Source of the DNA: Octopus vulgaris
Taxonomy: Eukaryota
Length of the DNA stretch: 64,000 nucleotides
NCBI GenBank assembly: GCA_951406725.2
Contig: OX597820.1
Location: 47,430,001 to 47,494,000 of the forward strand
Direction: 5' to 3'
In this document: one piece after another, positions 22,060 through 54,457 of the stretch
How the letters are laid out: the number at the start of each line of letters is the position of its first letter
How positions within the stretch are numbered: position 1 is the stretch's first letter
The notes under the pieces: generated by a model
Told to the model about the DNA's origin: nothing
What the model saw: the letters and a program-made list of their open reading frames with translations, nothing else
The model's database searches: none
Program-made: the position numbers and the translations under genes

Positions 22060-24812
22060 CAGATCTACCTAATCGAAGTGGCTTCAACACTCGCTGCCAG
22101 CATCAATTCTGTTCGAATTGATTTCATATTCAGTGTAATGATACACTTTTATTGGCTAATGAACGGCGTGAAAATCCTTTTCGTTATAAATCAATAAATA
22201 AAGAGTTATTAGCAATTCAAGTTGGAAAAGTTTGGTAATTTTAGCCAATCGAAAGCAGCAGACACATTCATGCCTGTTTCCATAACAAGCGGACCATGAG
22301 AATTATTTTGTCTGCGAGAAAGCACACGTTGACAAATATATTGAAACCGCTTGTTTTACCTATCTGTTGACAATTGTACATATGAATTTATGCTGCGCAG
22401 GAGATATGAAAATTGTGATTTGTTCGAGAAACTGATTGAATGCATTTAAAACTTTCGTTTTCAATGAACTGGTCAACAAAATGTTTTATTTAAAAAAAAT
22501 ATTTAATTTGGAATGTGCTATTTTGTATTTAGATAAATCTTTTAAGTTCGTGCTATCGCATTAAATTCATATTGAATGCTTAAAACTACAAAAGACATGT
22601 AGTTTACTCTTCTTTTTGTTGTTTACCCGAAAGATGGTATCCACACTCAATAAGTGGACCTCTGTGAAGCGAAATAACGTTTTTTTTTTAATTTTTAGAT
22701 AATTCTTTGAAGTTCGTGCTATCGCATTAAATGCATATTGAATGCTTCAAACTACAAAACACGTGTTGTTTACAAATATTGACAACACGTGCTATTTTCA
22801 GGATGTTGACGACAAAATGTGCAGTCACGCACATAATGACAGCTTCCAAATCCTGTTTTCTGGCTGGGTGGAAATGATCGAACTTTAAGCCTCTATAACA
22901 TTTAAAAAATATGTTTTCTGGAAAAAGTGAAATAACTCCAGCAATTCAGCTTGGAAATATTAATATAGGGCGTTACGATTATCAGAAAATCAAAAAAAAA
23001 ATGTGTGTAATAGGTGTAAAACAACTTCCTATGAACGAATATGAAAAAAAAATTCGCGCACGCTAATGGGGGGTTGGGGGAGGCCTCGTAAAATTCACAT
23101 CGGGAAGTTCCGAAAGCGTCTGAGGGGCTGACCCGGGCACCAAAACAAAAAAAAAAAAACAGCGTAATAGGTGTAAAACAACTTGCTCTAAACGACTATC
23201 ATGAAAAAAATGCGCGCTCGCGAAAGGGGGGTGGGGGAGAGGCTTCGGAAATTTCACATCTTCAGTCCACGGCCTTTAAACTAAGAAAAAATAGTGTAAT
23301 TGGTGTAAAACTACTTGTTCTAAACGAGTATCAAGAACACACACTCACACATGAATCATAAACTCCGTATTTTTGTACATATTTCGCAAAAAAAATAAAT
23401 AAATAAAGAGAAGAAATTCTGGAAAAAGTGAAGAAATGTTGGATCTCATTCCTTGGTTAAAGCTATTTTAAACATTAAATTTATGCTTTTTCTTTGAAAT
23501 AGTTCAGATATATGCAATTCTTCTCACTTATTAAGATGCATTTATCAGAAAAAAAGAGACAGAAAAAATTATTATTTTGTGTCAATCCTTCCCTAATTAT
23601 CCTTTATTAATTAGTTTTGGCGTGTATTTTTTTCCCAAATTTATTTTTTCACCTTTACAACACTGTTTAGTAAAGCAATTAATTATCTTTATAATTTGCA
23701 TATTTGACTTATTAATCAAAATTCTCTAGATGTAATATATACTAAGTAATGCATCCTTCATTTATGTGTTCCGTTCTGTATTATGCATGCGTGACTGTTT
23801 GTATGTAAGTGTGTTTAACTGTGCACATGAATGTGAATATTAAAGAACATATTTATTTACTATGATTGTTATTTTCAGAACAAATAAATCTTTTGGCTGT
23901 TATGTTATTGATGTTATTATTATTGCTAGTTAAAGGGTGGTGACTTGGCTGAATATTTTGAGTCTTGTAGTATGTAGTTGTGTTAGTCAATATTCTGAGT
24001 TCAAATCCAACTCATTTCTTTATCATCATTATCGATGGACCACTCAAAGAGGTATGTATACATTATCATTTTCGTAACATAATTTCTGTAGTATTTCAAG
24101 ATGTTTCTGACACGTATTTTGATTCACATGGCGGAGATCCAACATTTCTTCACTTTTTCCAGAATTTCTTCTCTTTATTTTTTTTTTTTGCGAAATATGA
24201 TTTTATGATTCATGTGTGAGTGTGTGTTCTTGATACTCGTTTAGAACAAGTAGTTTTACACCAATTACACTATTTTTTCTTAGTTTAAAGGCCGTGGACT
24301 GAAGATGTGAAATTTCCGAAGCCTCTCCCCCACCCCCCTTTCGCGAGCGCGCATTTTTTTCATGATAGTCGTTTAGAGCAAGTTGTTTTACACCTATTAC
24401 GCTGTTTTTGTTTTTGTTTTTGTGCCCGGTTCAGACGCTTTCGGAAATTCCCGATATAAATTTTCCGAGGCCTCTCCCCCACCCTCTTTCGCGAGAGCGC
24501 ATTTTTTTGTCATATTCGTTTAGAGCAAGTTGTTTTACACATATTACACTATTTTTTTTTGTTTTGGTGCCCGGGTCAGCCCCTCAGACGCTTTCGGAAC
24601 TTCCCGATGTGAATTTTCCGAGGCCTCTCCCCCACCCCCCTTTCGCGTGCGCGAATTTTTTTTTTTCATATTCGTTCATAGGAAGTTGTTTTACACCTAT
24701 TACACACATTTTTCTTTTGATTTTCTGATAATCGTAACGCCCTATATTAACCAATATTCTATAAACTTGAATTTTTGAAATGCTTGCAGCCAATCCAACT
24801 AGATATTCGTGT
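22060..24812. mobile_element. Non-autonomous DNA element (homologue of 29831-30566) interrupted by a Foldback-like insertion
   Basis: 22100-22960 and 24750-24812 align by eye to the two parts of 29831-30566. Confidence 0.65.
22964..24746. mobile_element. Foldback-like element with long modular TIRs
   Basis: Arms ~22964-23447 and ~24134-24746 are near-identical reverse complements built of ~130-150-bp subrepeats; flanked by TTAA; non-coding AT-rich centre. Confidence 0.8.
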
Positions 24813-37832: not shown

Positions 37833-38696
37833 TAGTATTTGAAAAATGAAGTCTTCTTTTGCAATGAACTTATACATTAGCCAGTTCTGAAGTATTTGCA
37901 GATAAACATCGCCGGTCACATTTCCTTCAAAGACAAACGGGCCATGAAGATGCTTCTTGGAGATGGTGCAGAATACATTCACTTTTGGTGAGTCCCTCTC
38001 ATGCTCAACTGTGGCATGGGGATTTCGTCGCCCCAAATGCGAACATTATACTAATTGACTTTGAAATTCGTATGAAAAGTGGCCTCATCAATGAAAAGAA
38101 GACATTCTTTGAACTCGGCTTCTTCAAGTTTCTCTTGCATATCAACACAGAATTGTTTGCGCTTTCGCTTGTCATCTGCTGATGTGGCCTGAACGTTCTG
38201 CAGCCTGTAGGGTTTCATTAGCAAGCGTTTCCTCAGGATGTGCCAAGCTGTCGTTGGGAGAATCTGGGTTTCCAGACTTGTTCTTCCTATGGACTTCTTG
38301 GGGCTCAACAAGAGATTTTGGCGAACCTGCTCAACCGTCTCTTCTGATGTTAGTGGTCGTCCAGCTCCTTTTGCTTTGCACAGACAGCCTTCCTCTTTGA
38401 ATTTTTTGAGCCATGTCCAAATCTGCATCTCCGTTGGCGACTTTTTTTGAGAACTCTCTCACAAATGCACGCTGCACAGTCTTGTTCGACTGTGTCCAAG
38501 CATACTCCAACACACAAGACACCCTTTCCTCTTCCAGTGAATGCCATTTCTATACCTGAAAAGATAAACATATCAAACATTAAACTTTAAAATGTTACTT
38601 GTTTCTACACATGCTGTTAAAATTTGAAGCCATTTGAACAAGAACTGGCAAAGTTATTAGATTACAAAACGCTATAGAATTTTTTGAAACACCCTA
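37833..38696 (-). mobile_element. Tc1/mariner transposase pseudogene (rosa/DD41D-like), 3'-truncated
   Basis: HTH WLKKFKEEG...GRP, FIDEATFH, IWGRRNPH...RDSPKVNVFC..GPFVFEGNVTGDVYLQIL, with stop and frameshifts; TIR agggtgtttcaaaa next to TA. Confidence 0.85.
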
Positions 38697-38732
38697 TATA
38701 TATATTAAAGATTAATATATATATATATATAT

Positions 38733-38835
38733 AAAATCTTTTTTCTTCCCTTCTTTCCTGAGCGTCCAATAATACTTTATTTGTTCCACCTCCTTGCGTT
38801 GTCGTCTTTTTGTTTTCTTGTTTGGATTAACTTTA
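38733..38835 (+). mobile_element. PLE terminal fragment in (TA)n
   Basis: Matches 29330-29420 (ctttcctgagcg...tttggattaac). Confidence 0.65.
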
Positions 38836-38923
38836 TATATATATATATATATTAATCTTTAATATATATATATAGGGTGTTTCAAAAAATTTGATATCGT
38901 TTTGTAATATATATATATTAAAG

Positions 38924-52274: not shown

Positions 52275-52360
52275 ATAACAAAATGACAACAAAAGAATGA
52301 GACCTCGATATTAGGTAAATAGAGGACTTTATAAATGTATAGTATAGGACAATCAGTAAG

Positions 52361-52434
52361 TTGTCATAATAGGACTCAGAGTTTCAAATGCCGGAGATAA
52401 GAGCTACGATGCATTTTCGTCGGCTATTTTGACA
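52361..52434 (-). ncRNA. Type I hammerhead motif (CCGACGA core)
   Basis: UGUCAAAAUAG-CCGACGA-AAAUGC..GCAUUU-GAAA-CUCUGAG-UC-CUAUUAUGACA. Confidence 0.7.
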
Positions 52435-52766
52435 GCAGACGCTATGAAAAACCGTTGAATAAAAGGAATGTTACTCTAATGGACAAGAAAAATTATAAAA
52501 GATAAAAAATAAAATATAAAAATTATAAAAATACATGCAACCATATTCTCACAATACATATAAAACCTTCTGCATACGTAAAGTCTACATACATACACAC
52601 TCACACAAGGGTGTATATATATATATATATATATATGCGCCCATACACACACAAAACATATAGGTGCATTTACCTGCCCATATACACATCTCTATACGCA
52701 CACACGCATATACATATACATGTTATATTAACTCCCCTGTTATTCAACGGTTTTTCATAGCGTCTC

Positions 52767-52841
52767 TTGTCAAAATAGCCGACGAAAATGTATCGTATCT
52801 CTTAGATCTGGCATTTGAAACTCTGAGTCCTATTATGACAA
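52767..52841 (+). ncRNA. Type I hammerhead motif (CCGACGA core)
   Basis: Stem I uugucaaaauag/cuauuaugacaa (11 of 12 bp), stem II aaaugu/gcauuu, GAAA-CUCUGAG-UC. Confidence 0.7.
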
Positions 52842-52945
52842 CTCACTGATTGTCCTATACTATATATATATTTATATAAATAAGAGACCAAAGTGTACGT
52901 TCGCCGCTATGTTTTTATATATATAAAATACAAAAATGCGACAAA

Positions 52946-53124
52946 AACGCAAAACATCCAGACAGACGATACAAAGAAAACAAGGACGAGTCATTCGGAG
53001 TTTTCTTTCTTCAGTCGAGAACCAGCCGAAATTGTAAAGATAATCAGGAACTCGACTGAGGAAAGAAAACTCCGAATGACCTGTCCTTGTTTTCTTTCTA
53101 TCATCCGTCTGGATCTTTTGCGTT
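52946..53124. repeat. Inverted repeat (74-bp arms) of a probable PLE terminus between (TA) runs
   Basis: Arms 52946-53019 and 53051-53124; spacer contains gccgaaattg. Confidence 0.7.
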
Positions 53125-53135
53125 CTTCTCTAATT

Positions 53136-53256
<121 letters not shown>

Positions 53257-53475: not shown

Positions 53476-53888
53476 AAAAATATATACATACATATATATA
53501 TATATATACATACATATATGTATACATAAATGTATATACACATATAAATCCATCCATCCATACATACATACTATATTTTCATTGATAGTTACCAGAAGCA
53601 ACAGAATGACTCAAGGCCCAAGAGTGTTGTAAGTTAGAACTTCACCAATCCTGTAAATAATTTATAAACGCACACAATATGTATATATGTATGCATACGT
53701 ATATGTTATGTATGTTTGCACGTATGCATATGTATATAATATAATATAATGTAATATAATATAATATGCATACGTATACAAGGGCAAAAGAAAAATTCTA
53801 ATGCCAAATATGCCGAAACAAAAAATTGTCGACAACCATTATAATTTATGCGTCTCGAAACAAACCGATAGAAATCTCTAAAAAAATT

Positions 53889-53959
53889 CGTTATTACCGT
53901 ATTGGTCCAATTTCGGGGTTAATTCATAAGAAATTTTCCCCTCTTCAGCGGCTAACACG
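53889..53959 (-). ncRNA. Type I hammerhead ribozyme (canonical core)
   Basis: GCCG-CUGAAGA-GGGG..CCCC-GAAA-UUGGACCAA-UA-CGGU. Confidence 0.8.
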
Positions 53960-54097
53960 CGAGATATAAGTGAAATACTTACTCATACCCATGGAAAAAG
54001 TAAGCACTAAGTCCTGGGCAGACTTAAGTACCCCAAATATATTCAAAATAGAAAAATCTTCGGCACATCTCGAGACACGTATTTCACTTATATCTCG

Positions 54098-54168
54098 CGT
54101 GTTTGCCGCTGAAGAGGGAAAATTTTCTTTTGAATTAACCCCGAAATTGGACCAATACGGTAATAACG
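54098..54168 (+). ncRNA. Type I hammerhead ribozyme (canonical core)
   Basis: UUGCCG-CUGAAGA-GGG..CCC-GAAA-UUGG-A-CCAA-UA-CGGUAA; predicted cut after 54157. Confidence 0.8.
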
Positions 54169-54457
54169 AATTTTTTTAGAGATTTCTATCGGTTTGTTTC
54201 GAGGCGCATAAATTATAATGGTTATTGACAATTTTTCATTTCGGCATATTTGGCATTAGAATTTTTCTTTTGCCCTTATCTTGTAAATTATTTATAAATT
54301 TAATCTTTAAAAGTATTTTCCCGAAAAAATTTTTATCCTACATAAGTCATATATATATATATATATATGACACATTACAATCACACACGCATGTGTGTTT
54401 GTACGCGCGTGCGCGCATGTATATATATGTGTGTGTGCGCGTAAGTGTGTATATACA

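Follow-up and report, generated by a model that had tools for sequence, protein, structure and literature searches.

MITEs are non-autonomous DNA transposons whose copies share an interior and both termini and are bounded by a target duplication of fixed length. Insertions of Penelope-like elements (PLEs) are described in PMC8557442, PMC3846280 and PMC8969392 as carrying an inverted 5'-truncated copy and a tail at one end only, and for one PLE the in vitro experiments described in PMC11167929 place this tail between two internal RT start sites and show both target strands being nicked at AT-rich DNA and extended. Metazoan non-LTR retrozymes, as presented in the main texts of PMC7229834 and 10.64898/2026.07.22.740005, are short, non-coding, low-GC units with one type I hammerhead ribozyme (HHR) per unit, occurring as tandem copies with a self-paired monomer in genomes that also contain PLEs; copying round a circular RNA has been proposed for them (PMC7229834, Discussion), and the link between retrozymes and PLEs is already in print (10.64898/2026.07.22.740005). 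Both retrozymes and the inverted, tailed ends of PLEs are thus published subjects.

Here we analyze an insertion at 53776..54347 (no strand assigned) of a 64-kb window, meaning the whole stretch of Octopus vulgaris DNA under study, from a microsatellite-rich genome of 2.8 Gb. The insertion comprises two 5'-truncated copies of a ~465-nt retrozyme unit, head to head between TA-rich microsatellite flanks, and belongs to a family whose copies end at one of two fixed 3' positions, long (L) or short (S). We consider it very probable that this is a non-LTR retrozyme, two 5'-clipped copies of which entered a TA repeat in head-to-head orientation, the likeliest agent being the RT/GIY-YIG endonuclease of a PLE acting in trans. 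The unit resembles these retrozymes in its short, non-coding, low-GC make-up, its single type I HHR, its tandem copies, its self-paired monomer and the presence of PLEs in its genome, but is slightly longer than the 150-450 bp quoted for metazoan units, and whereas metazoan retrozymes are described in long arrays, octopus copies are dispersed and mostly shorter than two units, with a maximum of 2.75 units among the best 40 of 4,034 candidates. The octopus family is also mostly head-to-head with fixed L/S ends, an arrangement not described in the retrozyme main texts searched, where the word "inverted" appears not at all (PMC7229834) or once, in a reference (10.64898/2026.07.22.740005).

The octopus copies resemble insertions of endonuclease-bearing PLEs, as those are described in the PLE papers cited: copies lie head to head, their 5' ends vary and are joined by microhomology, two 3' ends are in use, an HHR lies near the 3' end, partial tandems occur, and microsatellites are favored. 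They differ in a longer tail (~88 nt, against 30-40 bp in PLEs) and in a unit without an ORF, for which a homologous autonomous partner was not found among the PLE loci fetched. The resemblance to MITEs lies in a ~500-bp inverted repeat without an ORF, while the variable interior and the asymmetric ends are unlike MITEs; no target duplication was seen in the TA-run flanks.

Layout of the window insertion and its family

A sequence-only reading of the window had noted a palindrome of near-identical arms, and the arms are real: 53780-53978 and 54079-54277, 199 bp each, are 95.5% complementary, with 100 bp between them. The limits were wrong, however, as the right arm extends to ~54347 (with a 31-nt deletion) and the left arm stops at ~53776, and the ends of the insertion are therefore asymmetric. 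Numbering the unit from its cleavage site, on a natural 464-nt unit, the left arm (53776..54080, - strand) covers ~285-464 and then 1-~125, terminating at a slightly eroded S end, and the right arm (54079..54347, + strand) covers ~386-464 and then 1-~220, terminating at an L end. The one-sided tail between the S and L ends lies at 54291..54347 (+ strand), shorter than the family's ~88 nt by the 31 nt deleted here, with (TA)n after it. What had been taken for a separate 100-bp spacer (53979..54078, - strand) is instead ordinary unit sequence (~285-385) by which the left arm outreaches the right. The two arms meet 5' to 5' at 54079..54080 (no strand assigned) with a 2-nt overlap. No target duplication was discernible beside the window insertion, whose flanks are TA runs that would mask one. 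The reported absence of a long ORF held up, the longest stop-free run in a doubled unit being 95 aa.

We mapped this sequence across the genome, scoring the best 40 of 3,176 candidates in the first search, and found that the shared sequence exceeds the originally proposed limits on both sides. Unit length at the genome loci mapped is 450-469 nt, with units found as partial tandems. Exact motif searches returned 380 and 624 matches, and a tail motif returned 2,340 including a sister subfamily, with 0 matches for reversed controls in each case. The family thus numbers hundreds to thousands of copies of a ~465-nt non-coding unit (GC 34%), each unit with a single type I HHR. Sister subfamily B (L233-L245, L203-L226) is ~73% identical, with a ~489-nt unit, the core CUGACGA and the same two 3' end positions. 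Long satellite arrays were looked for as well, with none among the best 40 of 4,034 candidates, and no LTR layout occurs in the 132 mapped loci. Short pieces covering the unit were also present in contigs of four runs that may be RNA, an observation of presence only.

After removing 29 loci fetched twice or duplicated, we retained 132 independent loci, of which 90 are head-to-head, 39 one-directional and 3 other. All 90 head-to-head junctions are distinct, most of them showing short overlaps or filler of a few nt. The two 3' ends are fixed ~88 nt apart, with S alignments ending at ~144 (last clear base ~131) and L alignments at ~228 (~221). Every pair with both ends classifiable combines one L with one S end (63/63), the remaining 27 pairs having an eroded or odd end, and the same holds for the subset found by pattern alone (45/45). 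Further sets gave L+S in 21 of 22 pairs: the 14 longest new copies include 9 L+S insertions (9/9 of their pairs), and the 37 tail or subfamily-B loci include 12, along with a single L+L case at a compound locus. TA runs follow 90/97 L ends and 84/90 S ends (174/187 together), vs. a background of 11%.

This layout matches the PLE footprint of an inverted 5'-truncated copy with a one-sided tail. The earlier proposal of a twin-ended PLE insertion is therefore supported as to layout, although what was inserted is a non-autonomous retrozyme unit rather than a stub left by any coding PLE that we identified. The palindrome itself would then be a by-product of landing rather than the element. In the literature searched we found no description of head-to-head L/S retrozyme insertions or of an octopus retrozyme, and the words "hammerhead", "retrozyme" and "ribozyme" are absent from the main text of the octopus repeat annotation (PMC13282606). 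While the window locus is ordinary in itself, the family offers footprint evidence for the mobilization of retrozymes by Penelope-like enzymes, which the retrozyme papers, in their main texts, only propose, and its strict pairing of one long with one short end makes the "optional tail" of PLEs a constraint on integration that can be tested.

The hammerhead motif

Each arm had been described as holding a complete, outward-pointing HHR. CUGAAGA, stem II, GAAA, UUGG-A-CCAA, AUA and stem I are indeed found in both arms in that orientation, but neither motif is pristine. In the left-arm HHR (53889..53959, - strand), whose core starts at 53948 and whose AUA triplet ends at 53900, one stem I pair is broken; in the right-arm HHR (54098..54168, + strand), with its core from 54109 and its triplet ending at 54157, it is the fourth stem II pair. 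Cleavage is predicted after 53900 (left, -) and after 54157 (right, +). A type I descriptor has one match in the 64 kb, in the left arm, and 0 in 100 Markov shuffles; the right arm fails this 4-bp descriptor because of its broken fourth stem II pair. An Rfam scan of the window at gathering scores gave 0 matches, and in both window arms the HHR fold is 3-4 kcal/mol less stable than the MFE structure. The hammerhead motifs are real and beyond chance, and both are slightly decayed.

Family-wide, CUGANGA is kept in 125 of 145 motif rows. From these we hand-picked 36 rows to span the subfamilies, 7 of them found via a pattern requiring the stem III change, and in this alignment 93.7% of cells are paired, vs. 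24-44% with slid partners. Double changes appear in stems I, II and III, the HHR core is invariant except at N7, and loop 2 contains a covarying extra hairpin. Where both stem III partners have changed, 12 of 13 genome matches are compensatory. The HHR stems thus covary between subfamilies, through few independent events (a subfamily split), and the number of doubly changed pairs, taken by itself, does not exceed shuffles (68/500). Residue U1.7, described in PMC11875169 as linked to a tertiary contact, is invariant and unpaired in the alignment. Stem III is near-palindromic, with a pairing probability of 0.03-0.11 even in an intact copy; metazoan HHRs with such weak, near-palindromic stems are described as working best as dimers (PMC4209133; PMC7229834). 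From these sequence patterns, the motif looks to be under selection in source copies of the family, and self-cutting is predicted.

The window copy has no tandem HHR pair and therefore cannot release a monomer. The suggestion that cleavage would compete with hairpin formation in its transcripts proved a weak idea, since the predicted read-through hairpin (-328 / -348 kcal/mol) far exceeds the HHR fold (-11 to -13). Given this difference, and since the antisense arm is transcribed first whichever side the read-through RNA enters from, the prediction is that the hairpin buries the ribozyme, and only a transcript that initiates within the left arm would escape this. The window copy is thus probably inert, though it could at most give rise to duplex RNA, and each head-to-head copy in the family is likewise predicted to form a 200-bp duplex upon read-through.

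Templates and joining of the two arms

We next consider what was copied, using the 114 arms of 57 simple L+S pairs. The cleavage site is traversed seamlessly by 76/114 arms, and 21/114 are longer than one unit. Only 4/114 5' ends fall near the cleavage site, compared with 4 and 8 in the adjoining 32-nt bins. Because arms run across the cut, can be longer than a unit and show no concentration of 5' ends at it, cleaved linear monomers were ruled out as the main template. Divergence between arms is 6.1% within an insertion vs. 8.7% between loci (43/46), and repeats inside a single arm diverge by 4.9% vs. 7.9% between loci (35/35). Circular folds of the monomer are stable (z -2.7 to -6.7) in the six cleavage-to-cleavage monomers folded, which come from tandem copies with two HHRs. 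These sequence comparisons fit one template per insertion, possibly a circular RNA, though gene conversion, or descent from a single dominant source locus, could make arms alike as well, and uncleaved multimers could have served as template.

A cycle consistent with these patterns would begin with source copies carrying two tandem HHRs, whose transcripts would self-cleave into monomers that would then be circularized. A PLE protein would bind the tail, nick (TA)n and start cDNA synthesis at internal sites L and S. For the step that yields the head-to-head layout, we give somewhat better than even chances to two cDNAs, made by twin priming, whose truncated ends are joined through microhomology; the less probable course would have a single cDNA fold back before its truncated ends are joined, again by microhomology.

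Folding back would make the second arm a copy of one cDNA along itself, with the endonuclease resolving the product at the other fixed site. We regard this as possible but not the better account. Self-priming is proposed in PMC3846280, arms within a locus are alike, and near-symmetric junctions are enriched, with 5/57 within 5 nt where 1.3 are expected (p ~0.009), a small excess which suggests fold-back at some loci. However, arm lengths are uncorrelated (rho -0.02), and the longer arm is L in 24 pairs and S in 28, with 5 equal, where a fixed first primer would consistently favor one class. Two independent lengths, with neither class consistently the longer, favor priming from both ends, and PLE protein is described as extending both strands in vitro (PMC11167929). 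A more specific version of twin priming, which we regard as possible at less than even chances, is that each insertion would draw on one circular RNA, with a PLE dimer priming from both cut strands, strictly one at L and one at S (~88 nt upstream of L), and both cDNAs able to roll past the ligated ribozyme junction. If true, the all-or-none pairing of L with S would let genomic insertions report on an asymmetric PLE integration complex and on circular RNA templates.

Candidate helpers and neighboring repeats

To look for a parent or helper PLE, we scored the best 150 of 6,136 candidates in a PF01541 (GIY-YIG) search. The genome contains a young, Neptune-like, two-ORF PLE family with 98-100% aa identity (L120-L125, e.g., G000:C16:20834500-20842500), in which ORF1 (up to 479 aa) overlaps an RT-ZnF-GIY-YIG ORF2, with open frames of 781 aa. 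A scan of 764 aa gave 28.9 bits for RVT_1 (cut-off 29.6) and 30.6 for GIY-YIG (cut-off 22.6). These elements have direct pLTRs and TA flanks, and ~35 nt separate their two 3' ends. Their 3' UTR contains tandem repeats, and they have a C-X4-C-X2-C linker, a linker type tied to Neptune microsatellite bias in PMC8557442; a simple pattern search found no canonical HHR in these elements. Further PLE families are present at 33-66% identity.

Comparison of the unit with 42 GIY-YIG loci revealed no DNA homology other than a neighboring insertion and a weak 54-nt match. A pattern for the upstream context of sibling HHRs recovered 3 ordinary copies only, and no PLE-protein match is among the matches listed for 43 tail or subfamily-B loci. 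The helper is therefore inferred from the footprint. At L101:2819-3264, a head-to-head retrozyme insertion sits in a TA run directly 3' of the long end of a full-length PLE, a proximity that is a matter of shared target preference. The long ends of the retrozyme and of the 781-aa PLE also have a common look, a hairpin followed by ATCCTA, which is suggestive only.

The arms could alternatively be pLTR stubs of an autonomous PLE, in which case the unit would not cycle independently. PLE insertions have this layout (PMC8557442; PMC3846280), pLTRs are described as carrying type I HHRs (PMC4209133), and the 150 GIY-YIG candidates scored are a small share of the 6,136. We nevertheless think this unlikely, as long arms roll into the next unit, for up to 2.75 units, and none was seen entering coding sequence. 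PLE fragments lie within 1.5 kb of 8 loci, and the 6 inspected are separated by TA runs or unrelated DNA, or abut a broken inverted arm; the unit's lack of homology to the PLE loci fetched points the same way.

Least of all does the insertion appear to be a MITE-like palindrome that moves whole and bears hammerheads in terminal inverted repeats, a reading we consider extremely improbable: 13 loci align over at least 1-486 of the query (best 40 of 3,176) and resemble the same 500-bp palindrome, but each has its own breakpoints, and the check for copies sharing spacer and arm ends found 90/90 junctions different and the window junction only once genome-wide at <=1 mismatch, which together with the asymmetric L/S ends refutes such a family. 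Insertions of the retrozyme kind would nonetheless be mis-annotated as MITEs.

Several other inverted repeats lie within the window. One of them, at 52900-53140, is another head-to-head pair, older than the first; its outward ends lie in (TA)n, its hammerhead-like cores (CUGAAGA at 53014, -; CUGAGGA at 53056, +) lack a clean GAAA, and it probably represents a further decayed insertion of a PLE or retrozyme. Nearby, 52331-52479 and 52723-52871 form an inverted repeat of 149 bp (89%) whose outer ends are TA-rich, and an 80-bp inverted repeat (92%) at 38658-38911 adjoins a TA run. Finally, 22960-24750 holds complex nested inverted repeats (398 bp, 85%; 455 bp, 88%) with TTAA at both outer ends, and looks like a non-autonomous DNA transposon.
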